Of a stretch of 64,000 nucleotides of DNA, positions 23,179 through 57,756 are shown piece by piece. The notes below the pieces were generated by a model. That model was not told the DNA's origin. It saw only the letters and a program-made list of their open reading frames with translations, and searched no databases. The number at the start of each line of letters is the position of its first letter. Within the stretch, counting starts at the first letter, position 1. The position numbers were made by a program, and so were the translations under genes. The DNA comes from an uncultured Gammaproteobacteria bacterium (GTDB taxonomy: Bacteria > Patescibacteriota > Patescibacteriia > Magasanikbacterales > GWA2-37-8), in the NCBI GenBank assembly GCA_964634875.1, contig CAZWKA010000001.1, forward strand, positions 101,600 through 165,599, in the 5' to 3' direction.

Positions 23179-23307
23179 TTTTAGATCCAAGTATTACAAA
23201 CCACCCTTCTTTGGAAGGGTGGTTTTGTTTTTGGTTGAGACCTCGATTATCTTGACGAATGGGGTAAAAAGTGGTAGTAAATCGTCGATAGTGGAGGCAG
23301 GAAAACC

Positions 23308-23907
23308 ATGCAACGACGAAGTTTGCTTCGGGTTCTCGGGCTGACTGCTCTAGGTGTGCTGTCCGGTTGTAGCCTCTTGAGCCGCAGAGACGATGATCTG
23401 CCAACTGGCAACGGCTCGTATGTGGATACCAAGACGGGCTGGGTTAAGCGTCCTGACGGGACCATGACCGACGATATCGACGTGTACAACGGGGCGCTCG
23501 ATGAGATCTGCCAGGAGCACTTCAAACGCTCTCGGGTCATCCCCGCCATGCTCGGCTCGCTACGGTTCAATTTCATCGAGTCGGACTTTAAGTGCCCCAA
23601 GTGTAAGGTGGGGATGCTGGAAGCCAAGCCCCTTGAAGATGAGTTTATCCCGCCGGAGCCGGGGGATAAGAGCGGTGGCAGGGGTTTCTTTCAGGTCTAT
23701 GGCTATTGTGATCAGTGCGGGGAACGCTCGCCGGTAAAAGGCGCCGTTGTTCCTGCGCCCGCGCTCGCCATGGTCTATGAGGAGGAAGCCTCGGGTCTCG
23801 TGATCCCGGTGCCGATTGGTGGGTGGCTTGCGCCCCGCTTCTCTGGTATCCGGCTGCCGTCATTGCCGCCGCTGCGCGTCCCTCTGGAGCCAGTGTTCGT
23901 ACCCTAG
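23308..23907 (+). CDS. GC-rich lipoprotein with C4 zinc-ribbon-like motif
   Basis: 199 aa. Signal peptide and lipobox LSGCS. CPKCKVG ...(x37)... CDQCGE. Upstream promoter TATCTTGACG + 17 + TAGTAA (23252-23280). High GC3. Confidence 0.55.
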   Translation: MQRRSLLRVLGLTALGVLSGCSLLSRRDDDLPTGNGSYVDTKTGWVKRPDGTMTDDIDVYNGALDEICQEHFKRSRVIPAMLGSLRFNFIESDFKCPKCKVGMLEAKPLEDEFIPPEPGDKSGGRGFFQVYGYCDQCGERSPVKGAVVPAPALAMVYEEEASGLVIPVPIGGWLAPRFSGIRLPSLPPLRVPLEPVFVP

Positions 23908-24099
23908 CACCTCTGCGAAGAGGTTCTCTTTCACACCATAATTCCCGCCCACAGCCGACCTCACCGTCGGCTCAATAAAAAACCACTCAATCTCAATTGG
24001 GTGGTTTTTTATTCCTATCTTGACAAAACCCTGTTTTTCGGGTAGCGTAAAAAAGTCCCAATTGAGGCTTCAAACGATCGTCATAGGAGGTCGTCCCCC

Positions 24100-24384
24100 A
24101 TGAGTACTGCCAGTAAGAACGTTCGTACCGAGCATGATTTTGATGATGAAATCACTGATCCTGAGTTCGATGGGCGGCTCAGTGATCTGGATCTGCAGTT
24201 GTTCCAGGCCGCGACCACCTCAGTCGGGCCGCGACCCACGTCTGAAGTGCCCCCGATCCACACGGGCTCTCTGCGTACCGTGGGTTCGGGTCAGCATGGC
24301 AGCGCGAATGCCGGCCGTGTTGACTATCGGCCGCCTTCGGACAACGTTCCGGCCATCATTCCCCCGCAGAAGCGAAGGGGCTGA
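24100..24384 (+). CDS. hypothetical small protein (GC-rich)
   Basis: 94 aa. Preceded by CTATCTTGACA + 17 + TAGCGT (24019-24047) and SD AGGAGG. Acidic N-terminus and Pro-rich C-terminus. Confidence 0.35.
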   Translation: MSTASKNVRTEHDFDDEITDPEFDGRLSDLDLQLFQAATTSVGPRPTSEVPPIHTGSLRTVGSGQHGSANAGRVDYRPPSDNVPAIIPPQKRRG

Positions 24385-42092: not shown

Positions 42093-42464
42093 ATGAAGAG
42101 CACCTGGTTACTTCCTTTGCTTTTTGGCTTTGGCTGTAGGGCGGCGCCGCTGCCCATCTCTGATAACCCGGTGGCTGTCAGGGAGACAGTGGCGAGCTGC
42201 GAGTCGCCGCAGCGTACGTGGTCGGACTGCGCTGTGGCCTGTGTCCGCAAGGTGAATCTGGATCACGAGTACGACCCGGCGATCGACCTCTGCCGGCGAC
42301 AGCACCCCGACAACGTCAAGGGTGTGGTGGCTTGTCTCAACGACAAAGTCCCCGACTACACCGCCGCCTTCCGCGCCTGTACCAAGGACGACGGCTGCGA
42401 CAAAATCCGGGAGAACCATCCCGGCTGCTTCGGGCCTGAGGCCGTGAACCTGCCTTCGAGCTAG
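42093..42464 (+). CDS. GC-rich secreted Cys-rich protein (single copy of a ~90-aa 8-Cys module)
   Basis: 123 aa with a signal peptide. Cys spacing SCESPQRTWSDCAVACV ... CRRQ ... ACLND ... ACTKDDGCDKIRENHPGCFGPE is shared with both halves of the next ORF. High GC3. Confidence 0.55.
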   Translation: MKSTWLLPLLFGFGCRAAPLPISDNPVAVRETVASCESPQRTWSDCAVACVRKVNLDHEYDPAIDLCRRQHPDNVKGVVACLNDKVPDYTAAFRACTKDDGCDKIRENHPGCFGPEAVNLPSS

Positions 42465-42642
42465 TCTCGGAACAACTGCAGCTTCCTTTTGACCTGGAGC
42501 CGACACTGTCGGCTCCAGTACTGTTTAAAATTAGCCGCTGACATTTTGGGAATAGTCATTAGTCGATATAGTTTCGTATAATGACTGGTTCTAAGGCGCA
42601 TGTGCTGCGTTGTCGAAGCCAGGGTTTTTATCGGAGGGAATC

Positions 42643-43263
42643 ATGTGGAAATTATACACCGGATTGTTGGTGGTTGCTGCTGGCTGTACCTCGCTGGCAA
42701 ATGTTCAGCGGCTGCGACCAGATACGCCGGTTGAGCCGTGTCACGAGGTGCAAAAACGCTACGGCGATTGCAGTCTGCTGTGTGCACAAAAGGCAGATCC
42801 TACCCAAGCAACCAATGCTGTGCTCGACAGTTGTGGCGAGAAATTCAGTGAGAGCATTGATCGGATGTTGGCTTGTTACGAAGCGGAGGCTCCGGAACAA
42901 GCGGTCGCTTACCGTTCGTGCATGCAAGACAGCGGTTGCACGAACGTCCGAGAAAGTCGGGCCAGCTGTTTTGGAGAAGGTGTGCCAACAGGTATAGCTG
43001 TCCAAGGTGATGGTCGCGATTACGAATCATGCCGAGAGGTTGAGGTGGCGTACAATGCCTGTGCGCTGAGCTGTGCTGAGCGGATTGATCCCGATGGTCC
43101 GACAGCCGATTTAATAAAGCGTTGTGCACGTGAGCTACCACCGGACACCTGTTATCGCGAGGGTAGCCCAAAAGCGCCCCAGTTCATGTGGTGCCTAAAA
43201 GCGAATGGGTGTATGGTGCGCCGCACCTTGCGTCCCGAGTGCTTTGTTCCGACTGGTGAGTAG
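42643..43263 (+). CDS. GC-rich Cys-rich lipoprotein (two tandem copies of the same 8-Cys module)
   Basis: Start at ATG 42643 with SD GGAGGGA. Lipobox AAGCT. Repeat 1 is EPCHEVQKRYGDCSLLCAQ ... CGEKF ... ACYE ... CMQDSGCTNVRESRASCFGEG. Repeat 2 is ESCREVEVAYNACALSCAE ... CARE ... CYRE ... CLKANGCMVRRTLRPECFVP. Confidence 0.55.
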   Translation: MWKLYTGLLVVAAGCTSLANVQRLRPDTPVEPCHEVQKRYGDCSLLCAQKADPTQATNAVLDSCGEKFSESIDRMLACYEAEAPEQAVAYRSCMQDSGCTNVRESRASCFGEGVPTGIAVQGDGRDYESCREVEVAYNACALSCAERIDPDGPTADLIKRCARELPPDTCYREGSPKAPQFMWCLKANGCMVRRTLRPECFVPTGE

Positions 43264-43433
43264 GACAGTTCACGATATCTTCGTCCTAATTAGAGAGCCG
43301 ACAAACGTCGGCTCTCATATTGTTTTTGTATTAAAAAAACCACGTTAACAGCGTGGAAGATGGAAGTGTTGGATTAAGTTCTCCCGCCCCAAGAAAGTGT
43401 TGGGACGGGAGAACTTATGGGTGAAAGGAGCGC

Positions 43434-44420
43434 TTATTCGATGTAGCGGTGGGTATCAAAGCCCTCCGGCAGTTCGATCTCATCCAGGTGGAGGAAGGCA
43501 ACTATCGCGATGCGCAGCGCATCGGGGTGAAGTTGCTTGGGCTGCGGAACCTGGACAACACCGTGGTACAAGGGCTTCAGCCGGCCGCCGGTCAAGAGGA
43601 AGGGTTTGCAGGCGTTGAAGAGAAGGGGGCGGTTCGGCTCTGAACTGATCGGTACCCACTCATACGGCTTGCAGGGGTTGAGCCCGGGCGGATGGGGTGT
43701 CGTCAGAACATGGTCCAGATGTTCGCCGCGGTCGTCATGAAGCGCTTCCAGAGCATGTCGTGGTTGCGCGCCTTGCAGACCGGGCCCGCTTTCGTAGGCC
43801 GCATAGGTGAATGCCGAGCGATCGTTATGTCTGCCACCGATTTCGCCCGTAGTATCTTTTCGACGGCCTGTATAACCGAGAATCCGTATCACATCAAAAT
43901 TGTCTCGACCCTCTCGCCCGACCAAGGGAGTCATCTGCGTGCCCAACAAATCATCAAGCTCGCGCACGATTCCACGTGCATGATCTTGAAACCGTCGGAG
44001 CAATGACTGGCAGCTGAAGAGTAACCGCCGATGTTCTCTGAGGAATTCGGGGTTGAACTGGGTCAGCTTGTCGAACAGGGGAGCGCGGAAGTGGAACGTC
44101 TTTTTGTGATCCTTCTCCCGCTCAGGATTCGTTGGATCCGGTTGGCCAACAGATTCCCAGAACCCAGTATCCCAGTCTGGGGGCTGGCCAGGCTTTGAGA
44201 TCATATTGAATGCCCAAGCTCTCGGTTCCTTGGGGGGATTGTCGATCAAGTCCAGAAAATCCCTGACGATCAACGGAATGAGGTCGTCCGTTCTGAGTTC
44301 AACGCGCGTGATTCGGTCGCGGAGAAGTTCTTGTGCGTGGGCTCGATTCCGTGCAAGGTCCATTGTCATGGGCACACTCCTTCTAACTCGCCAGTATAGC
44401 CGAGCCAAATATTTTTGCAA
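43434..44420 (-). CDS. 2-oxoglutarate/Fe(II)-dependent oxygenase-like protein (IPNS/ACCO-type HxD...H)
   Basis: 328 aa. HNDRSAFTYAAYESGPGLQ resembles the HxD ... GLQV strand. YEWVPISSEPNRPLLFNA ... LYHGVV resembles WxxVxPxPxxxVVNxGD ... HRV. Moderately GC-rich. Confidence 0.45.
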   Translation of the reverse strand: MQKYLARLYWRVRRSVPMTMDLARNRAHAQELLRDRITRVELRTDDLIPLIVRDFLDLIDNPPKEPRAWAFNMISKPGQPPDWDTGFWESVGQPDPTNPEREKDHKKTFHFRAPLFDKLTQFNPEFLREHRRLLFSCQSLLRRFQDHARGIVRELDDLLGTQMTPLVGREGRDNFDVIRILGYTGRRKDTTGEIGGRHNDRSAFTYAAYESGPGLQGAQPRHALEALHDDRGEHLDHVLTTPHPPGLNPCKPYEWVPISSEPNRPLLFNACKPFLLTGGRLKPLYHGVVQVPQPKQLHPDALRIAIVAFLHLDEIELPEGFDTHRYIE

Positions 44421-44574
44421 CTCTATTTTCCATTTATTTTTTATGCAGTGGGTATATAAAAATAAAAACAGCCTTTTGAAAAAGCTGTTTTTAAGGGAGG
44501 CCGACGGTGGTATCAGCAGGAGTCAGCCGTTTGAATGAGCGTTGTTAGGTGTGTGGTTCTTGGTCTCTTGGGTG

Positions 44575-45123
44575 CTACTCGCATCCCCACGACGTGTCGC
44601 CTTGCCACCCGGCGAAGCGGGTGTCGTCCGTGTCGCCCCGCACCTCCTGGGTGGGCGGCTCCTTCGGCTCGTTGCAGGTGAAGCGGCATTCGGCCTCAAT
44701 GTGCACATCCGGCTTCGTGAACATGTGCATGTCGCGCCGCTCACCAGTCTTCTTGTTGACGGCGACGGCGCTCGAAATCATCTGGGGGTGGGTAGTGAGC
44801 TTGTAGGCGGTCGCGCCCTCGCAGAACGGGATCGGATTCGGGTTGCAGAGGGCGTAGAAGGTTCCTGCTGGCGATCGTGAGATCTCGAGGATGTAGACCT
44901 TCTGATCCTTGTTCGGGGCGGGCGGCACATTGCAGGCGAAGCTCTTGCCGCCGTCATTGTTCGCTAGCACCACCTCCGGCTCAGAAGACCCCTCCAGGAA
45001 GGCTGAGTTCGTAGTATCGAGTGGGTGCTCCGTCGCCACGACTGCTTCTCGCTGCAAGACCGGCGCGGCGCATGCGCCCGCCATCAACGCTGACACTGCC
45101 ATCCAATTACGCATGCTGGTCAT
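44575..45123 (-). CDS. GC-rich secreted Cys-containing hypothetical protein
   Basis: 182 aa. Signal peptide MTSMRNWMAVSALMAGACAAPVLQ. Six further Cys. A minus-strand CTATCTTGACA motif lies upstream at about 45188-45201. Confidence 0.5.
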   Translation of the reverse strand: MTSMRNWMAVSALMAGACAAPVLQREAVVATEHPLDTTNSAFLEGSSEPEVVLANNDGGKSFACNVPPAPNKDQKVYILEISRSPAGTFYALCNPNPIPFCEGATAYKLTTHPQMISSAVAVNKKTGERRDMHMFTKPDVHIEAECRFTCNEPKEPPTQEVRGDTDDTRFAGWQGDTSWGCE

Positions 45124-45271
45124 GAACGTACCTCCTTGAGTGCGCTGGGCGGTGTGCCCAGCGCAGGAAGTATACTTAACACATTTTTAGAGAATGTCAA
45201 GATAGTTCACAGATAATTTTCCACTTGCCTTTTTGGCTAAAAAGGGCTACGCTAAGCCAGTGCTATGTTAC

Positions 45272-45332: not shown

Positions 45333-46631
45333 ATGTCCTCAATCTGCCTTTCCAAAAATCTCCACGAACACATCGGTGAAGAAGTCGTTATTCGCGGTTG
45401 GCTTTATAATAAACGTTCCAGCGGTTCGATCGCTTTTTTGGAAGTCCGTGATGGTTTTGGTTGGGTGTCGGCCGTCGCTTCTAAAAGCGCAGTGCCCGAG
45501 AGTGTCTGGGACGCTATTGAAAAACTGACCCAGGAATCCTCGCTCACGCTGAAGGGTTTGGTTAAAGTGCACCCGAAGCGTGCTAATGAGTATGAGGTTG
45601 AGGTGCGAGATGTTGAGATCATCCAGCTCGCTACCGAATATCCAATTGCCAAGAAAGAACATGGCCCGGATTTTTTGATGGAGAACCGCCACTTGTGGCT
45701 CCGGAGTAAACAACAGTGGGCAATTTTGCGTGTGCGCGACGCCATTATTATGGCCATCAACGAATATCTACATCAGGAAAATTTTATCAAAGCCGATAGC
45801 CCGATTTTTACACCCAATGCCTGCGAAGGGACGACGACTCTTTTTGCTGTACCGTATTTTGATTTAGGCACGGCCTATTTATCCCAATCTGGGCAGTTGT
45901 ATATCGAAGCAGCGATTGCCTCGGTGGGGCGCTGTTATGATTTTGGTCCAGTTTTTCGAGCGGAAAAAAGTAAAACCAAACGTCATCTCACTGAATTTTG
46001 GATGATGGATGCCGAAGGTGCCTTTGTTGAACATGAAGAAAATTTGCAAATTCAAGAAGGATTGGTGCGCCATATCGTGCGTTATTGTTTGGAACACTGT
46101 AAACAAGAGTTGGCTATTTTGGAACGCGACACTGCCAAGCTCGCACAGGCTGACGCACCGTTCACGCGCTACACGTATGACCAGGCGATTGTAAAATTAA
46201 ACGAACTTGGGTCTGATATTAAATATGGTGAAGACTTGGGCAACGATGATGAGGGGCTTTTGACCAAAGACAGTGTGGTGCCGGTCTTTATCGAAAAATG
46301 GCCCAAGGGTATTAAGCCGTTTTATATGAAACGCGACCCGAGTAACCCCGAACTAGTCCTGAATGATGACCTGATTGCGACCGATGGTGGGGGAGAGTTG
46401 ATTGGGGGGTCACAGCGTGAAGAAGATGTTGACGTGCTCATTGAACGTATTAAGCACGAAGGGCTCAACATGGAAGATTATGAATGGTACCTCGACCTGC
46501 GTCGCTATGGCAGCGTCCCACATTCTGGCTTTGGCATCGGCCTCGAGCGGGCGGTGCGCTGGATTACGGGTGTCGAGCATATTCGGGAGTGTATTCCGTT
46601 CCCACGGACGATTGGCCGTTTAAAACCATAA
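45333..46631 (+). CDS. asnS: asparaginyl-tRNA synthetase (class IIb)
   Basis: 432 aa. N-terminal OB anticodon-binding domain. Class II motifs FRAE and GGSQRE. C-terminal GLERAVRW and FPRTIGRLKP. The length fits AsnRS rather than AspRS. Confidence 0.85.
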   Translation: MSSICLSKNLHEHIGEEVVIRGWLYNKRSSGSIAFLEVRDGFGWVSAVASKSAVPESVWDAIEKLTQESSLTLKGLVKVHPKRANEYEVEVRDVEIIQLATEYPIAKKEHGPDFLMENRHLWLRSKQQWAILRVRDAIIMAINEYLHQENFIKADSPIFTPNACEGTTTLFAVPYFDLGTAYLSQSGQLYIEAAIASVGRCYDFGPVFRAEKSKTKRHLTEFWMMDAEGAFVEHEENLQIQEGLVRHIVRYCLEHCKQELAILERDTAKLAQADAPFTRYTYDQAIVKLNELGSDIKYGEDLGNDDEGLLTKDSVVPVFIEKWPKGIKPFYMKRDPSNPELVLNDDLIATDGGGELIGGSQREEDVDVLIERIKHEGLNMEDYEWYLDLRRYGSVPHSGFGIGLERAVRWITGVEHIRECIPFPRTIGRLKP

Positions 46632-46890
46632 AATTGATAAGCAAAAAAATCCCTCTAAAAAAGGGATTTTTTTGCTTAGTATAGCCAAAAAAACACGTGG
46701 ATAACTAGGGGCGAGTCTATCTTGACAACAGTCCGGTTTTGTGCTAGGGTCAGTAGTACTCGATTTTGAGTATAGCTTTTTGAAAAATAAGGCCTTGAGG
46801 ATGGGTACGAGCTTATTTAGCTATAAATAGGCTGCTATCCCGCCTCGAGACCTTCAACGTTCCAGTCTATCAACGTTCCAGTCCATAGGA

Positions 46891-47934
46891 GTGCAAGTCA
46901 TGAAGAACTCTCGTTTCCCGAACGTCCTCGTCCTCGCCCTGGGGCTGCTCGCCCTGGGTGCGAACTCGGCCAGCGCCGAGGAGCACTTCACTGGCCCCTA
47001 CCAGGACGTCACGCGCGCCGTCGTGCCCGACAAGCCCGCCGCCCCCAACTACAAGGAGATGGGCGAGAGCCTGTCGTCCTGCACGCCGCTCTACGGCGAC
47101 GCCGAGTGCCGCAAGCGCCTCGGCCTGCCCGCCTCGGCCGCCCCCGTCCCCGCCGCGCCGTCCGCCACCCAGAAGCCCACCGCCCCCGGCACCAAGGTCG
47201 TGAACAACAACCGCGTCGTCGCCGGCGGCAGCAAGTCCGTCGGCTCGGCGGCCCGCGCCACGGGCCTCAGCGAGGCCATCAGCGGCCGCGGGATCTTGGG
47301 CAGGGGCGGCAAGTACTTCGGGTTCGGCATCTACGTGCCCATCACCATGCTCCGCGGCTACGATGGCTTCGACGCCCGCCAGGCGCCGGTGCTCGGCGGC
47401 CTCGGACTCATCCTGCGCGGCGAGATGTTCAGCATGCTCGGCCTGCCCATCGGCTGGCAGATCTACGGCGGCTGGGAGAAGGGGTCAGTGCTGACGGTGC
47501 GCCAGGTCGACCTCGCCAAGGGCGAGATCAACGAGGCCTCCGGCGGCAACAACGCCGACCATCTCACCATCGGTGCTGCCCCGACCATCGGCCTGGGCCC
47601 GTTCAAGGCCTTCCTCGGCTACGCCTACCGCTACCGCCTCTCCAGCGCGACCGGCCCCAGCGATGACAAGCTCGTCGTCGTTCCCTCGGCGTCCGGGCAC
47701 GCCTTCGAGATCGGTGGCCGTGCTGACCTGTTCGGCGGCAGCGTCTCCATCTCCGCCCTGGTCGTGCCGGGCTGGGGGGAGACCTTCTACCCCGACTCCA
47801 AGGATCACCCCGGCGCGCTGAAGCTCAACCTGCCGAGCCTCGGCGACCGCATGTTCCCGGGCAAAGCGGGAGATCTCGTCCAGACGAACGAGAGGCTGAT
47901 CCTCCTCCAGCTCAGGATCGCCTTCTTCGGCTAG
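46891..47934 (+). CDS. very GC-rich secreted Ala/Pro/Gly-rich protein
   Basis: 347 aa. Signal peptide MKNSRFPNVLVLALGLLALGANSASA. PAAPxAT linker, Gly-rich C-terminal domain. GC3 is near-saturated. Upstream CTATCTTGACA + 17 + TAGGGT (46714-46750). Confidence 0.55.
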   Translation: MQVMKNSRFPNVLVLALGLLALGANSASAEEHFTGPYQDVTRAVVPDKPAAPNYKEMGESLSSCTPLYGDAECRKRLGLPASAAPVPAAPSATQKPTAPGTKVVNNNRVVAGGSKSVGSAARATGLSEAISGRGILGRGGKYFGFGIYVPITMLRGYDGFDARQAPVLGGLGLILRGEMFSMLGLPIGWQIYGGWEKGSVLTVRQVDLAKGEINEASGGNNADHLTIGAAPTIGLGPFKAFLGYAYRYRLSSATGPSDDKLVVVPSASGHAFEIGGRADLFGGSVSISALVVPGWGETFYPDSKDHPGALKLNLPSLGDRMFPGKAGDLVQTNERLILLQLRIAFFG

Positions 47935-48070
47935 ACTGCCGCTATCCACACCCATCCCCGCCGCCGGCGCACCACTCGTCTTCCAAGACTTGAGTGGTGC
48001 GCCGCGGCTCTCCAATTAAATTTCTAAGGTTCCTTAGAGGTTTTGAGGAGAGAGAAACTTCTTAAAAAAA

Positions 48071-48101
48071 GCCTGTCACCAATTGGTGGACAGGCTTTTT
48101 T
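48071..48101 (+). terminator. intrinsic terminator
   Basis: GCCTGTCACC AATT GGTGGACAGGC followed by TTTTTTA. Confidence 0.55.
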
Positions 48102-48184
48102 ATAAGCATTGACAACTTGGCTTAAATATGGTACCCCATAAGCTTCCCTGGTCAAAATAACCTTTTTCACCTAAAGGGGTGAAC

Positions 48185-48829
48185 ATGTACTTTGTCAGAC
48201 GTTGTGCTCGTTTTCTCGTGGTCGCTGTGGCTCTGGTTCCGTTGTTTAGTATTGCGGGTTGTAACTTCCTGCGCTGGAACAGCGGAGGGAGCCAAGGGGA
48301 CAAGCCGACCGGGAGCGACACGGTTGGTAGCAGCGGCTGTGAAGGCCGTGAGTTCTGTGATGACACCACCGGCGACACAGAGGCCCAGGCAGCCTGTAAA
48401 GCCTACCGCACGTGTCTTGCAGTAACAGCTGTCGACGATCCGATGGGCTTGGGTGTGACCAAAAGCCCTGGGATTTCTGAGCCTGCTGGTACTGCCGCGG
48501 GTGCCAATTGCAATGCGGTTAAAGAGTGTCCCAAAAGTCCGACAGGCAACCACGTGTTCCGGCCAGACGATCCGCCTGAGTTTACCTATGAGGTAGACGA
48601 TGACGGTAGTTGCACCAGGACCAAGATGTTCCACTGCATCTATTGTGGTACTACCTACTCACATGCCGCGCCTCCTGAGCAGGTCACCTTGTCGGACATG
48701 CTGCGCGACCATGAGGCGGCTCTGCGACAGCAGAGCCCTGCAGCAGGGCATATCGCTTCGGTCATGCAGACTGCTGAGATGGTCGCCCGGCGACTGAAGT
48801 TGCCTGGGGTTTGTTCGCCAAGCCGCTAG
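48185..48829 (+). CDS. GC-rich lipoprotein, paralog pair 1 member a
   Basis: ATG 48185 follows SD AAAGGGG. Lipobox IAGCN. Shares CEGREFCDDT, AACKAYRTCLAVTAVDDP, CNAVKECPKSPTGNHVF and CIYCGTTY with 48957-49703. Confidence 0.6.
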   Translation: MYFVRRCARFLVVAVALVPLFSIAGCNFLRWNSGGSQGDKPTGSDTVGSSGCEGREFCDDTTGDTEAQAACKAYRTCLAVTAVDDPMGLGVTKSPGISEPAGTAAGANCNAVKECPKSPTGNHVFRPDDPPEFTYEVDDDGSCTRTKMFHCIYCGTTYSHAAPPEQVTLSDMLRDHEAALRQQSPAAGHIASVMQTAEMVARRLKLPGVCSPSR

Positions 48830-48956
48830 ACAGCATCCTCATTCTTTTCCATCCAACCTATCGTAGCGGCCAGTAGCGCCGCTCTTCTGTGCCACGCATG
48901 AGCAGTTCGTGCTGGGCAGCGAAGAATAGACATTTTAAAAAATGGAGGGAGCCAAG

Positions 48957-49703
48957 ATGATTCGAAGACACTCGCGTTACTTCGACCGTTGCGCGCCAGG
49001 CGTCCTTGGTTTGGCACTTGTCCTTTTTGGCGGTTGCAACTTTATCGGCAAGCTCGGAGGCGCCTCCGGAGACAAAGGGGGTGCCGAAGCGCCGGCTGCG
49101 AATCTGCGCTGTGAGGGACGGGAGTTCTGCGACGACACCAGCACCGACCCCGAAGCGCGCGACGCCGCGAAAGCCGCGTGTGAAGCGTACCAGAAGTGTC
49201 TTGCTACTGTTGCCGTTGACGATCCACAGAACTTGGGTGCGGCAATGAACCGTGGTGGTTCATTAGGTTCAGGGCCTGCTGATGAGGCTCGGTGTGATGC
49301 GGTTCAAGAATGTCCGCATAGTCCAACTGGTAATCATATCTTCAAGGGTGAAACGCCGCCCAAGTACATGTATACCGTCGACAAAGATGGCGCCTGCTGG
49401 AAGCAGGAAAAGATGGATTGCTCCGTGTGCGGCACGACCTACTGTGGCTATGCGCCGAAAATCAAAATCGGCCACAACGAGCTCCGACGTTCTCGCGCGG
49501 AAGCCTTCCAGAAAAGCAATGATGCCAACGCCGCCTACCAGCGAGCAATGGCGGATGGTGTGACTGGGGACGCCTTATTCGCGTTCCAGTGGACGGCTGA
49601 GGTTGCACGGCAGTACTACACCGTTTTATTCGGCGCTTACGACACCGCCGAGACGTTTGCGATTGATCACGACAAGCCGTTTCCCTGTGCACCCATGGAG
49701 TAG
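48957..49703 (+). CDS. GC-rich lipoprotein, paralog pair 1 member b
   Basis: ATG 48957 follows SD GGAGGGA. Lipobox LFGGCN. CEGREFCDDT, AACEAYQKCLATVAVDDP, CDAVQECPHSPTGNHIF and CSVCGTTYCGY are conserved with 48185-48829. Confidence 0.6.
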   Translation: MIRRHSRYFDRCAPGVLGLALVLFGGCNFIGKLGGASGDKGGAEAPAANLRCEGREFCDDTSTDPEARDAAKAACEAYQKCLATVAVDDPQNLGAAMNRGGSLGSGPADEARCDAVQECPHSPTGNHIFKGETPPKYMYTVDKDGACWKQEKMDCSVCGTTYCGYAPKIKIGHNELRRSRAEAFQKSNDANAAYQRAMADGVTGDALFAFQWTAEVARQYYTVLFGAYDTAETFAIDHDKPFPCAPME

Positions 49704-49866
49704 TTCCTTCATCGATTCGTCCTGCTCAGGTGGTTGTTGAGCGGGTCGTAACCCTGCCGTTCTTACAACGGCTTTCTCATTCATAGTCTAAGTTTTTAGC
49801 TTGGAAGATGAGTCCAGAAAAAGCAGTTCGTTAAGACAATCAAAACCCAACAGCGAGGTGAATGTT

Positions 49867-50499
49867 ATGCCTATTCGTTCTTCAGCTTTGCTCTTCACGA
49901 TGCTGCTGGCAGGCTGTACCTGGTTGACCCAGAAGAATCCACAGCTGGAAGGCCAGTCCAACGGGTTGACCGGCCTGGTGGCTGGCGCCATTGCCGATAC
50001 CTTGATTGAAGGCCTGTCGCCATCGTGTACAGACACCGGAGCTTGCCAGGAAGATCCGAACGGGCAGCTGTGCAAGGAGTATCGCCAGTGTTTGCAGGCA
50101 GAGATTGACGGCTCGAAAACCGGTTTGGCTGCTGGCCCCATGCGCGGCGGCCGTCGCCGGGGCAAAGTTGCAGCGATCACTCCCGAAGGCGAAGCTTGTG
50201 ATACCGACACGTCCTGCCCGCATACCATGTTCAAACCCGGCACGCGAACGGTTAAAGTTTGGGTCGAGCCGCGCATACTTGGTAGTGGCGGAACCTATGG
50301 CCGGTGCTGGCAACAGGTTACGGCTATCTGCGCTGCGTGCGATCAGCCCGTTGGCTCCCCGCCAACTCCGGCTTCGGTTGAAGAAATCAAGAAGCTCAGC
50401 CAGATCATGTTTCCGGGTGACATCTGGAACGAAATTTTTATGGCGATGGTCAACCAAGGGGGTTGTTGGGACGAGCCCTGGGTTCCGGCTTTCCAGTAG
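49867..50499 (+). CDS. GC-rich lipoprotein, paralog pair 2 member a
   Basis: ATG 49867 follows SD GAGGTG. Lipobox LLAGCT. LIEGLSPSCTDTGACQEDPNGQLCKEYRQCLQAEIDG is paralogous to the N-terminus of the next ORF. Confidence 0.6.
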   Translation: MPIRSSALLFTMLLAGCTWLTQKNPQLEGQSNGLTGLVAGAIADTLIEGLSPSCTDTGACQEDPNGQLCKEYRQCLQAEIDGSKTGLAAGPMRGGRRRGKVAAITPEGEACDTDTSCPHTMFKPGTRTVKVWVEPRILGSGGTYGRCWQQVTAICAACDQPVGSPPTPASVEEIKKLSQIMFPGDIWNEIFMAMVNQGGCWDEPWVPAFQ

Positions 50500-50609
50500 C
50501 CCTGCCCCCCCACAAAAGCGGCCGAACAGGGTTCGGCCGCGCCCTTCAGTACTGTTCGCAAGTTTTACTTGCGCCCAGTAGTGAGTGACACCAATCCACG
50601 AGGTGCAAC

Positions 50610-51164
50610 ATGGTCAAAGTAGGAGTATGTTACAAGCCCACACTTGTCTTGATGTTGTTGTTGGGTGGTTGTAAGTGGTTAGTTACTCCAACAAATCCCG
50701 AGCTTGCCAATGCTGGCGGGGGTAGTTTTGGAGGCTTTGTTGGCGGTTTGATTGAAAAAGGTTTGCAGCCAACCTGTCAGCGACCCGAATCTTGCGATAG
50801 CGACCCTGATAGCCAAGAGTGCCGTGACTACCGCCAGTGCGTGGTGGATGAAATCAGGAATGGCGGTGGTTCTGCTGAGTCGTCGGGTAGTGGGGGATCA
50901 GATCCCGCTGCTCCCGGAGCTGCCTGTGGCACCGATGTCACGGACTCCCCGCCAGAAGACGAAGCGGAGGAGAAGGAAAAGGCTCGCTGTCCGGTTTGCG
51001 GAGGTCCGATGAAGCGTAAGTCGCGACCGATGGTCGTAGACTTTGGTGCAAATCCCTACCGCATGTGGCAGTACCAGTGCACGAACCGAGGTGTTTCGCG
51101 CGGCGGGCAGTTCGGTCACGGCGACTTTTCCGGTCGACGCTGGCCGCTCAAGCCCGCCGAGTAG
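50610..51164 (+). CDS. GC-rich lipoprotein, paralog pair 2 member b, with C4 zinc-ribbon-like motif
   Basis: SD GAGGTG. Lipobox LLGGCK. LIEKGLQPTCQRPESCDSDPDSQECRDYRQCVVDEIRNG. CPVCGG ... CTNRG. Followed by a hairpin at 51192-51221. Confidence 0.6.
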   Translation: MVKVGVCYKPTLVLMLLLGGCKWLVTPTNPELANAGGGSFGGFVGGLIEKGLQPTCQRPESCDSDPDSQECRDYRQCVVDEIRNGGGSAESSGSGGSDPAAPGAACGTDVTDSPPEDEAEEKEKARCPVCGGPMKRKSRPMVVDFGANPYRMWQYQCTNRGVSRGGQFGHGDFSGRRWPLKPAE

Positions 51165-51392
51165 CACCATCCCCATCCCTGCCTTGACAAGCCAACGTTG
51201 ATCGCATCTGCGATCCGTTGGCTGCTTATCCTGCACGCTAGTAAGTTGGCGTACGGGATAAAAAGAAAATCACTCGGAAACGAGTGATTTTCTTTTTCTA
51301 AGGCATTAAGGCCTATCTTGACGATAGTCGGTTTTCGTGATACCACGTTCTGTACAATCATTTTTGCCCTTGGGGGCAGGAGAAGAAATCCA

Positions 51393-51908
51393 ATGAAGCG
51401 ACGACTTTTGGGTTCTGTTGTCATGTTTTTAGCTTGTGTGACAGGTTGTGCTGCGTCATCGAGCTATCAGTCAGAGCCTGCTTCAACAGGTGTTGAGCCA
51501 ACTAATCCCCATCCCGCCTATTGGGGCCAGCTCCAGGCAGGGTTGGTTGATACAGGTCCGGTGCTGGTTGATCGAAGCTGTGACGACGCGGACGTAGTTG
51601 GTGCTGCGTCTGCGGCCAGCGACGAGGAGATCCCAGCGTGTGTCCACCCGCTCGCCCAGAATCCATGTCTCGTTGATAGTGAGGAGCAGTCGTATCAGCC
51701 TGACCCGGTTGGGGTTGGTGGTGAGGGCCGTTTCTTCGCCGGCCAGCGCTATGCGCTTGTTTTTGAGGTAAGCAAGGCGGTTGGCTGCCGGGCATCGTTG
51801 CGCTGGCTTTGTGGTACAAGTCGGGTTCTGCGGTGGACCAAGGTGGCGCGAGATCGCCTGCCACCCGAGCTCAATGAGTTGGCTACCCACATCGGCGCCT
51901 GCCAGTAG
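51393..51908 (+). CDS. GC-rich lipoprotein (fifth gene of the array)
   Basis: ATG 51393 follows SD AGGAGA. Lipobox VTGCA. Upstream CTATCTTGACG + 17 + TACCAC (51313-51346). Six further Cys. Confidence 0.55.
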   Translation: MKRRLLGSVVMFLACVTGCAASSSYQSEPASTGVEPTNPHPAYWGQLQAGLVDTGPVLVDRSCDDADVVGAASAASDEEIPACVHPLAQNPCLVDSEEQSYQPDPVGVGGEGRFFAGQRYALVFEVSKAVGCRASLRWLCGTSRVLRWTKVARDRLPPELNELATHIGACQ

Positions 51909-52025
51909 TAAGCTCGCTTCGCAGTGAGCCAACGTCGAGCAAACAGCTCGACGCCTTCCTCTACCTTCTGTTAGGGAATGTAGCGGAAGGCAAAAAAACC
52001 TGACCACAATGGTCAGGTTTTTTAT

Positions 52026-53215: not shown

Positions 53216-53240
53216 ACCCTTTGTTCGATTCTTATTTTAG

Positions 53241-53324
53241 TGCCCAGAGAGAGAATCGAACTCTCATGATGTCGCCATCGCGGGATTTTGAGTCCCGTGC
53301 GTCTACCAGTTCCGCCATCTGGGC
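53241..53324 (-). tRNA. tRNA-Leu (anticodon CAA), type II with long variable arm
   Basis: The reverse complement folds as acceptor GCCCAGA/TCTGGGC, D-arm GCGG-AACTGGTAG-ACGC, anticodon stem CGGGA/TCCCG with loop CTCAAAA, a 14-nt variable arm, T-arm GAGAG-TTCGATT-CTCTC, and discriminator A. Confidence 0.85.
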
Positions 53325-57225: not shown

Positions 57226-57756
57226 CTAGTGGGGCTTGAGGGCAAGGTTCTGGGTGGCCGGCACCCGTCCCTCGCGGCCGTAGAAGTCGGGGCGCTCCTG
57301 GTCGCCGTAGCGGCGGCGCACGGGCATGTCGACGGGGGCGTGGTCACACTCCCGGGCCGGCGGCGTCTTGCGCGGGGTCTGGGGCGGCGGGGTGTCGAAG
57401 ACGACCTTGCCGTTCTCAATGCGGAAGTGGTACTGGGCCTGGCCGTGATAGGCGAAGAAGTGCCGCCCATCCGGGATCATGCGTGCCGTCGCCACACGCT
57501 GCGCCTTGTTGAGCGCGAGCTGGTGGGTGTGGCAGAGGCTGGACTCCTCACACGGCGTGCCATCCGACCAGATGCCGGGGCAGCGCTCGGGCGTCGCCTC
57601 GTCGTTGGCGAGGCGGACGAAGCGCCCGCCATCGTCCATCTTCACTATGTACCAGTGACCCTGGAACCAGAACCGCTTGCCGGCCCGGAAGTTGAGGCTG
57701 CGGGCGTGCCGGAAGGCAAGGTCGATGTCAGGCTGACTGTGGGGCTTGACGAGCAT
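57226..57756 (-). CDS. GC-rich hypothetical protein (no signal peptide)
   Basis: 176 aa with high GC3. Cys/His-containing (CPGIWSDGTPCEESSLCHTHQ). No match to a known motif. Confidence 0.4.
   Translation of the reverse strand: MLVKPHSQPDIDLAFRHARSLNFRAGKRFWFQGHWYIVKMDDGGRFVRLANDEATPERCPGIWSDGTPCEESSLCHTHQLALNKAQRVATARMIPDGRHFFAYHGQAQYHFRIENGKVVFDTPPPQTPRKTPPARECDHAPVDMPVRRRYGDQERPDFYGREGRVPATQNLALKPH

Follow-up and report, generated by a model that had tools for sequence, protein, structure and literature searches.

The window analysed here is a stretch of 64,000 nucleotides from a contig (CAZWKA010000001.1) of an uncultivated, ultrasmall bacterium of the candidate phyla radiation. The subject is a GC-rich segment of 5.4 kb (46632-52025) interposed between two core genes, coding for the asparaginyl-tRNA synthetase AsnRS (45333-46631) and for a convergent metallophosphoesterase (MPE), and carrying a gene for a secreted protein, g0, together with five putative lipoprotein genes, g1 to g5. 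An initial annotation of this DNA had described a tandem array of five lipoprotein genes. The array is real, but it is only part of a larger insertion which also holds g0, a setting that the annotation had missed. Perfect hairpin terminators set off three units, namely g0, g1-g4 and g5, and the hairpins reported at the end of the array were found at 51260-51297 and 51993-52023. The genes and hairpins of the insertion are as follows:

46638-46678, no strand assigned: bidirectional hairpin terminator 3' of AsnRS, a 17-nt perfect inverted repeat with A/T runs on both sides; left edge of the insertion
46900-47934, plus strand: g0, Sec-type secreted protein with cleavage between ASA and EE, an Ala/Pro-rich linker and a Gly-rich, all-beta C-terminal domain
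47968-48005, plus strand: GC-rich hairpin at the 3' end of g0, within which both Logan contigs described below break
48185-48829, plus strand: g1, lipoprotein of family A, 214 aa, lipobox IAGC26, 10 mature Cys
48957-49703, plus strand: g2, lipoprotein of family A, 248 aa, lipobox FGGC27, 11 mature Cys
49867-50499, plus strand: g3, lipoprotein, divergent member of family A, 210 aa, lipobox LAGC17, 10-Cys spacing of g1/g2
50610-51164, plus strand: g4, lipoprotein of family B, 184 aa, lipobox LGGC21, with an N-terminal C-x5-C...C-x5-C module in common with family A
51260-51297, no strand assigned: hairpin terminator closing the g1-g4 unit, a 17-nt perfect inverted repeat with A/T runs on both sides
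51393-51908, plus strand: g5, lipoprotein of family C, 171 aa, lipobox VTGC19 or FLAC15, 6 mature Cys
51993-52023, no strand assigned: bidirectional terminator between the convergent g5 and MPE, a 14-nt perfect inverted repeat; right edge of the insertion

The AsnRS gene shows 74-81% identity to metagenome-assembled genomes of Candidatus Magasanikbacteria / Patescibacteria. In seven relatives (L004, L006, L007, L008, L012, L015 and L017) the gene order is AsnRS, convergent MPE, tRNA-Leu, parA, parB and relA/spoT, and the spacing between AsnRS and MPE is 30-83 bp. The objection that the array might lie on a contaminant contig is ruled out by independent Logan contigs from SRR12762304, one carrying AsnRS and g0 (L184) and the other g1-g5 and MPE (L001). 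Since both reproduce the region at 100% identity, misassembly, chimerism and contamination are excluded. The sole gap between them measures 17 nt (47972-47988) and falls within the GC-rich palindrome; the assembly break had been considered as a clue to population heterogeneity at g0, a reading rejected because the Logan contigs break inside the palindrome.

In other Magasanikbacteria the AsnRS-MPE gap holds unrelated insertions of 0.7-2.5 kb (L002 11454-11846, L009 11408-12118, L003, L016 and L019), some of them GC-enriched, as in the case of L009, with its 236-aa protein carrying CxxC...CxxC. Because unrelated insertions occupy it, the gap appears to act generally as a hotspot of variable genes. 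In the window, MPE and parA are separated by a tRNA-Leu(CAA) gene (53240-53324, minus strand), and a copy 87% identical to it (L083 11623-11707) stands directly after the island of L083, at the contig end, with no MPE in the intervening 350 nt.

The listing of open reading frames (ORFs) over 46.5-53.5 kb returned plus-strand ORFs at 48185, 48957, 49867, 50610 and 51393, each with a Shine-Dalgarno (SD)-like GGAG/GAGG/GGGG motif 4-9 nt upstream of its ATG (AAAGGGGTGA, TGGAGGGAG, GCGAGGTGA, ACGAGGTG and GCAGGAGAAG, respectively). Every window ORF of at least 90 aa was then scored with a PROSITE PS51257-style lipobox rule, consisting of six non-charged residues followed by [LIVMFWSTAG]2-[LIVMFYSTAGCQ]-[AGS]-C, with the Cys at residues 15-35 and a K/R within the first seven. 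The rule was satisfied by g1 (IAGC26), g2 (FGGC27), g3 (LAGC17), g4 (LGGC21) and g5. In the last case the rule passes FLAC15, while VTGC19 fails at -4 but matches the classical L-[AST]-[GA]-C; in the g5 orthologue of a related genome (L181), LVGC followed by AA is aligned with VTGC followed by AA of g5. The five co-directional genes with SD motifs, signal peptides and lipoboxes that had been proposed are therefore all present at the proposed starts, and the suspicion that the lipoboxes are artefacts of wrong start choice is answered by the SD motifs, which support the starts. Only four other credible lipobox ORFs occur in the 64 kb (23308, 42093, 42643 and, on the minus strand, 44575), and all nine are located in GC-rich ORFan islands. 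Judging from these signals, the products of g1-g5 are predicted to be lipidated and exposed at the cell surface.

The annotation had grouped the array into two paralogous pairs, and both pairs align: g1 and g2 share 42% identity over 202 aa (E=2e-48), with every motif quoted for them present, and g3 and g4 share 39% identity over their N-terminal 74 aa (E=2e-13). The grouping itself is refined by profile comparison. In hhalign, a profile of the seven-member g1/g2 family matches both g3 (probability 91%, E=1e-6) and g4 (95%, E=3.5e-8), so that these two also tie to g1/g2, whereas g5 does not align to the profile, is unrelated to g1-g4 and makes up its own family.

The relationship is most readily followed in the cysteines. 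A common spacing, C-x5-C...C-x5-C...C-x5-C...C-x7-C-x2-C...C, runs through g1 (Cys 52, 58, 71, 77, 109, 115, 143, 151, 154, 210), g2 (52, 58, 75, 81, 113, 119, 147, 155, 158, (163), 244) and g3 (54, 60, 69, 75, 111, 117, 147, 155, 158, 200); we place the three proteins on one scaffold. In g4 the first four scaffold Cys are kept and the remainder is divergent, the C-terminal part consisting of CPVC plus single Cys/His. The mature products of g1-g5 contain 10, 11, 10, 8 and 6 Cys, mostly even counts, which correspond to 3.9-5.3% of residues versus 0.8% in 14 core proteins. Twelve columns are invariant in the alignment of the seven members of family A, five of them Cys and one His, and C119, H127, C147, C155 and C158 are among the invariant residues. 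An AlphaFold2 (AF2) model of g2, built from 7 sequences, reached a predicted local distance difference test (pLDDT) score of 66, with a confident helix at 51-85 and, over 117-248, a stretch of small beta hairpins that leads into a long helical hairpin.

Zinc-ribbon-like CxxC...CxxC motifs had been assigned to g4 and to a lipoprotein encoded at 23308. The assignment stands for the latter (C96-x2-C99...C134-x2-C137) and not for g4, in which CPVC at 127-130 is followed by a lone Cys157 and the two CxxC/CxxH knuckles of a zinc ribbon are not found; at the place of Cys157 the L177 orthologue of g4 carries C-x2-H. Each of g1-g3 combines one CxxC with a CP...H element. For the Cys of these exported proteins, disulfides are an equally good reading as zinc.

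The gene at the head of the insertion, g0, has 70% GC, rising to 0.94 at third codon positions (GC3). Its AF2 model, obtained from two sequences (g0 and its L083 homologue), is weak (pLDDT 41) and draws eight long antiparallel strands, rich in Gly, with few charges and with one hydrophobic face. This low-confidence model is similar to 8-stranded outer-membrane barrels (OmpA N-domain, OmpW, NspA), and g0 may be an 8-stranded beta-barrel, which we take as a lead and not as a result. The likeness concerns g0 only, and such a barrel would be unexpected in a lineage thought to be without an outer membrane. With its counterpart in L181, g0 shows only a weak N-terminal similarity (E=0.001), and a word-indexed search of 5.8e9 proteins with g0 or the g0 alignment yielded no close homologue beyond one already known.

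An exhaustive HMMER search with g1 and g2 against 1.84e9 (1.84 billion) protein representatives gave 9 matches, namely g1 and g2 themselves, 2 spurious repeat proteins and 5 genuine relatives (P0008-P0011 and P0013). P0013 is encoded downstream of AsnRS (80% identical to that of the window) in L083, P0010 and P0011 lie between AsnRS (91% identical) and MPE in L181, P0009 adjoins MPE in L177-L180, and P0008 is found on a short contig behind a beta-rich ORF of 71% GC. Wherever the context is informative, the relatives of family A occupy the AsnRS-MPE slot of related genomes, with differing gene sets, and the core proteins there match those of the window at 77-94% identity. As to the other families, g4 has an orthologue at L177:1672-2196 (42% identity, E=8e-41), and orthologues of g5 adjoin MPE in L177 (38%) and L181 (33%), the E values of the g4/g5 orthologues ranging from 8e-41 to 5e-25. 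The g5 orthologue of L181 (6873-7370, plus strand; 165 aa, lipobox LVGC) is an uncalled ORF that overlaps a called 117-aa ORF on the minus strand, and the public gene call at this place is probably wrong.

A further family, D, is represented in the window at a separate locus:

23308-23907, plus strand: family D lipoprotein (lipobox LSGC21) with CxxC...CxxC; homologues inside the AsnRS-MPE island in L083 (three) and in L181

All-against-all BLAST of the islands, with the uncalled L181 ORF included, gave the following layouts, in which semicolons separate the units, A' stands for g3 and g0' for the L181 counterpart of g0: g0; A, A, A', B; C in the window; g0'; A, A, D; C in L181; ...; A, B; C in L177; and X, g0, D, D, D, A, Y in L083. 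These layouts indicate that the families keep company in one slot and that the set of members differs between genomes. The copy-number variation that the annotation had predicted is thus found: the middle operon of the window reads [A,A,A',B], whereas L181 has [A,A,D] and L177 has [A,B].

No characterised homologues had been evident at the outset, and this impression was borne out, with singleton clusters for all five lipoproteins and empty library scans. Specifically, g0-g5 and the other island ORFs gave nothing above noise in Pfam, NCBIfam, PHROGs and PADLOC, and families A, B and C had no match in sequence-profile searches of the PDB. Relatives were likewise absent from the GTDB representative genomes scanned with the g1/g2 alignment and from two JGI metagenome scans, one with automatic patterns and one with the degenerate pattern G-x-C-x7-C-x2-C-[GHR]-T-T-Y; the 92 pattern matches of the latter proved by tblastn to be due to chance. 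IMG/VR, the INPHARED phages and the PLSDB plasmids contained no match. The word-indexed search of 5.8e9 proteins with g2 returned the query only, and negatives of this search are weak because its index missed g1 when g2 was the query.

The following elements were found between the genes:

46717-46746, plus strand: promoter-like element of g0, CTATCTTGAC (-35 TTGACA), a 30-nt repeat 80% identical to the g5 promoter
48008-48058, plus strand: ultraconserved non-coding hairpin between g0 and g1, CUCUCC..AAAUUUCUAA-loop-UUAGAGGUUU..GGAGAG + AGAAAC
48063-48102, plus strand: intrinsic terminator hairpin with a T-run, whose sequence varies and whose position is kept in L177, L181 and L082
51313-51342, plus strand: promoter-like element of g5, CTATCTTGAC, conserved ahead of the orthologous genes at 2311 in L177 and at 6798 in L181

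The motif CTATCTTGAC is found in 4 exact copies, where 0.07 would be expected for the window, and all 4 precede GC-rich ORFan genes, including g0 and g5. The shared promoter-like motif attributed to the fifth gene is confirmed, and its conservation extends to the orthologues in L177 and L181. The putative g1 promoter, with TTGACA at 48109, follows the terminator at 48063-48102. Island promoters (46717, 51313, 24015 and 48109, with counterparts in L177, L181 and L082) consist of TTGAC(A/G) and, after some 17 nt of spacer, TGnTA(G/C)(G/C)nn, which replaces a TATAAT-like -10 box; a sigma-70 consensus scan missed these promoters.

The hairpin between g0 and g1 forms 16 pairs, with one compensatory change and a minimum free energy z-score of -5.4, and its G.U pairs make it specific to the plus strand. 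The 25-mer TTAGAGGTTTTGAGGAGAGAGAAAC within it (48034-48058) is 100% identical in three other genomes (L082, L177-L180) and shows 2 mismatches in L181, and the genes adjoining it in those genomes have only about 40% protein identity. No Rfam family matches the hairpin, which may be a small RNA, a 3' untranslated region element or a protein-binding RNA. An integron-like/attC reading was dropped, as the hairpin is present in single copy in the window.

Evolutionary rates were estimated between the window and L177/L181, with identities taken from BLAST or codon alignments. AsnRS, ParA and RelA show 91-94% protein identity and a non-synonymous divergence (dN) of 0.05-0.07, ParB 80-85% (dN 0.11-0.15) and MPE 67-77% (dN 0.15-0.27). 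Against their positional counterparts, g1, g2, g4 and g5 retain 33-45% protein identity with a dN of 0.49-0.72, about 10-fold above that of the neighbouring core genes. Together with the aligned paralogues, this divergence agrees with the duplicated, diverging family of Cys-rich lipoproteins that had been suspected. A change about ten times faster than that of the housekeeping genes alongside indicates that the products of g1-g5 are probably located at the cell surface. Nearly every pair, also among the core genes, has reached saturation at synonymous sites (proportion of synonymous differences 0.70-0.82), and for this reason the ratio of dN to synonymous divergence (dN/dS) is unusable to tell positive selection from relaxed constraint.

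The GC richness noted for the array was also confirmed, with 0.57-0.59 in g1-g5 versus 0.45-0.48 in core genes. At third positions the values are 0.56-0.64 for g1-g5 and 0.42-0.53 for core genes, with about 0.48 for the core of the genome. At second positions g1-g5 reach 0.51-0.54, owing to a composition rich in Ala/Gly/Pro/Cys. The island spacers are mostly host-like and AT-rich (GC 0.41-0.51, one exception at 0.60). Across genomes, GC3 is 0.54-0.95 in the islands versus 0.43-0.57 in core genes, and the g0-type gene at the first island position always has about 0.9 (0.94, 0.92, 0.89 and 0.95). A positive link of recombination rate with gene GC content has been reported, as have recombination hotspots in adaptive regions (PMC11879095), and by analogy this link could apply to the GC3 of the island. 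Another fast-evolving, GC3-rich gene at a fixed position is a cytosolic Cys/His-rich ORFan between relA and topA (57226-57756, minus strand; GC3 0.91), whose counterpart in the same slot of L181 (12469-13071) has 28% identity and a GC3 of 0.86.

All together, we read the 46632-52025 region as a lineage-restricted, hypervariable envelope-protein island of Candidatus Magasanikbacteria, placed between the core genes AsnRS and MPE, and we assign to this reading a probability of roughly 0.55. According to it, g0 would be exported by Sec, and g1-g5 would be substrates of signal peptidase II, lipidated on the lipobox Cys and thereby anchored on the outside of the cell membrane. A linker rich in Gly/Ser/Pro and 25-40 residues long would present small domains, stabilised either by 3-5 disulfides or by metal sites made of Cys/His. 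Diversification of the families would have come about by tandem duplication (g1, g2, g3 and, partially, g4) and by quick amino-acid change around the fixed cysteine scaffold, while genes would be gained, lost and swapped, the swapping probably via recombination in the conserved flanks. Since such a pattern of variation occurs in a presumed episymbiont, the most economical interpretation is a role directed at a host or a phage; a role at the cell surface towards another organism (host cell or phage) appears most likely, and no enzymatic role is suggested.

Some observations weigh against this interpretation. No lgt or lspA was found among the window genes scanned; Lgt has been reported in another lineage of the candidate phyla radiation (CPR) (PMC4736985). 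Of the surface-variation system envisaged in the annotation, no programmed machinery was found: neither repeats nor invertible elements, neither homopolymer switches nor silent cassettes, and no recombinase; nor do switch-type repeats or inverted repeats flank the promoters. In addition, the rapid divergence suits relaxed constraint as well as diversifying selection, and the model leaves the persistently high GC3 unexplained, given that divergence should erase a neutral foreign signature.

That GC3 (0.94 in g0 and up to 0.79-0.91 in other island ORFs, against 0.42-0.53 in the core) is what foreign cargo would display, that is, genes recently acquired from a high-GC diderm, possibly the host, and of little or no function in the Magasanikbacterium. 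The broken synteny fits such an event, and an OmpA/OmpW-like barrel accompanied by lipoproteins, as the g0 model would have it, is sensible in a diderm donor. However, family A has no homologue outside Magasanikbacteria-type loci in the 1.84e9 representatives, g0 has no close one in the 5.8e9 proteins of the word-indexed search, the AT-rich intergenic regions are host-like with promoters common to other loci, and ORFs, SD sites and Cys scaffold are intact in all genomes. Moreover, homologous islands share the slot in genomes whose synonymous sites are saturated, and therefore the island is old or recurrent and not the outcome of one recent event; a foreign, idle cargo is for these reasons unlikely. 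The invariant C119, H127, C147, C155 and C158 of family A, the CxxC...CxxC of family D and the weak, sub-threshold zinc-ribbon Pfam matches of g4 would suit lipoproteins that bind zinc, copper or iron, or that work as thiol-redox centres, on the surface of the membrane; in an anoxic habitat their task would be the uptake, storage or detoxification of metals rather than recognition. Metal proteins with a housekeeping role are as a rule conserved and widely distributed, whereas these families occur in few genomes, evolve about 10-fold faster than the core and vary in copy number; g4 is without the second CxxC knuckle, the mostly even Cys counts suit disulfides, and no transporter or chaperone genes are adjacent, so that we consider this function quite unlikely.

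Small lipoproteins are common among phage morons, and the atypical composition, the tRNA-Leu gene some 1.2 kb beyond the right edge of the island and a very weak match of g5 to Rz-like spanins (E=0.085) recall a remnant of a prophage or mobile element, in which the lipoproteins would have served lysogenic conversion, as superinfection-exclusion proteins or spanins, or would be the cargo of an integrative element. Such an origin is made highly improbable by the lack of any PHROGs match below E=0.07, of any match in 50,697 phage records or IMG/VR and, for g0, in plasmids, of an integrase and of flanking direct repeats, as well as by the MPE gene standing between island and tRNA. The mere opening of long frames in GC-rich DNA, where they easily arise, could account for the many overlapping ORFs of the stretch and for products that are all ORFans; yet the conservation at the protein level, with invariant Cys/His across at least 7 sequences, the orthologues of g4 and g5 at E values of 8e-41 to 5e-25, the SD sites, signal peptides and terminators in register and the strong period-3 signal in the g0 frame (GC3 0.94) have already largely refuted spurious, decaying or non-functional ORFs, to which we leave a minimal chance. 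At the opposite end, a bolder extension of the envelope-island reading would see in g0 and the lipoproteins a two-part contact device of an episymbiont: the OmpA/OmpW-like g0 barrel, exported by a cell lacking an outer membrane itself, would insert in that of a diderm host, the lipoproteins on the symbiont membrane would bind g0 or other molecules of the host surface, hypervariability would track the host strain, the RNA hairpin would couple the expression of both parts, and the high GC3 would stem from intense recombination or repeated capture of host alleles. This we put forward as speculation with a very small chance of being correct.

If the island is an envelope-protein locus, its nearest parallels are found in surface-lipoprotein systems of other bacteria. 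The Vlp/Vsp/Vsa proteins of Mycoplasma are Cys-poor, tandem-repeat proteins that switch by homopolymer tracts or site-specific inversion. With them the island shares tandem co-directional lipoprotein paralogues, a genome-reduced, host-dependent bacterium with a single membrane, fast divergence of the mature region and differences in copy number; unlike them, it encodes globular modules rich in Cys, it showed neither repeats nor switch elements, and its proteins are unrelated to theirs in sequence. The vls locus of Borrelia varies by gene conversion from promoterless silent cassettes. Here, and in the paralogous lipoprotein families of Borrelia, the likeness lies in a surface-lipoprotein locus with GC markedly above that of the genome and in rapid diversification, but each gene of the island is whole and has an SD and a signal peptide of its own, and no homology exists. 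Within the CPR itself, Peribacteria encode Cys-rich extracellular proteins that are strain-variable, bear signal peptides and average about 1,650 aa, and for which a part in attachment has been proposed (Anantharaman et al. 2016, PMC4736985). These are a precedent for Cys-rich, strain-variable proteins with a signal peptide in the CPR, but they are not described as lipoproteins, whereas the island codes for predicted signal peptidase II lipoproteins of 171-248 aa from unrelated families. The products of g1-g5 are new protein families, and a variable array of surface lipoproteins in a reduced, host-dependent bacterium is of a known kind; what is new is the cysteine scaffold, the linkage to a possible beta-barrel, the conserved RNA hairpin, the fixed slot and the GC3 anomaly.

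To our knowledge, host recognition and attachment in the CPR are largely unknown beyond a few cultivated Saccharibacteria, in which type IV pili dominate. The locus offers concrete candidate surface molecules in an uncultivated lineage, in the form of three or four new lipoprotein families whose surfaces change fast around a fixed cysteine scaffold, and it is easy to find and compare across metagenomes because it always lies in one genomic slot. In addition, it poses a compositional puzzle, in that a high GC3 is kept in fast-evolving genes despite saturation at synonymous sites, which bears on the debate about recombination and GC in bacteria. Should the genes be ordinary lineage-specific envelope proteins, the value of the locus would be mainly descriptive.

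Other GC-rich ORFan patches are present in the window. On the other side of AsnRS lies a second island (42093-45205), at a place where RecO and AsnRS are adjacent in L083. It contains two paralogous Cys-rich lipoproteins, at 42093-42464 (FGFGC) and 42643-43263 (VAAGC, 16 mature Cys), a cytosolic ORFan of 328 aa on the minus strand (43434-44420), with a 39% identical homologue in L181, and a lipoprotein on the minus strand (44575-45123; MAGAC, GC3 0.82) preceded by a CTATCTTGAC promoter at 45196. The family D lipoprotein at 23308-23907 is located after fusA and has a Pro-rich C-terminal tail. Ahead of it, at 23247, stands TTATCTTGAC, a variant of the promoter motif, and at 24015 an exact copy of CTATCTTGAC precedes an acidic ORFan of 94 aa (24100-24384).

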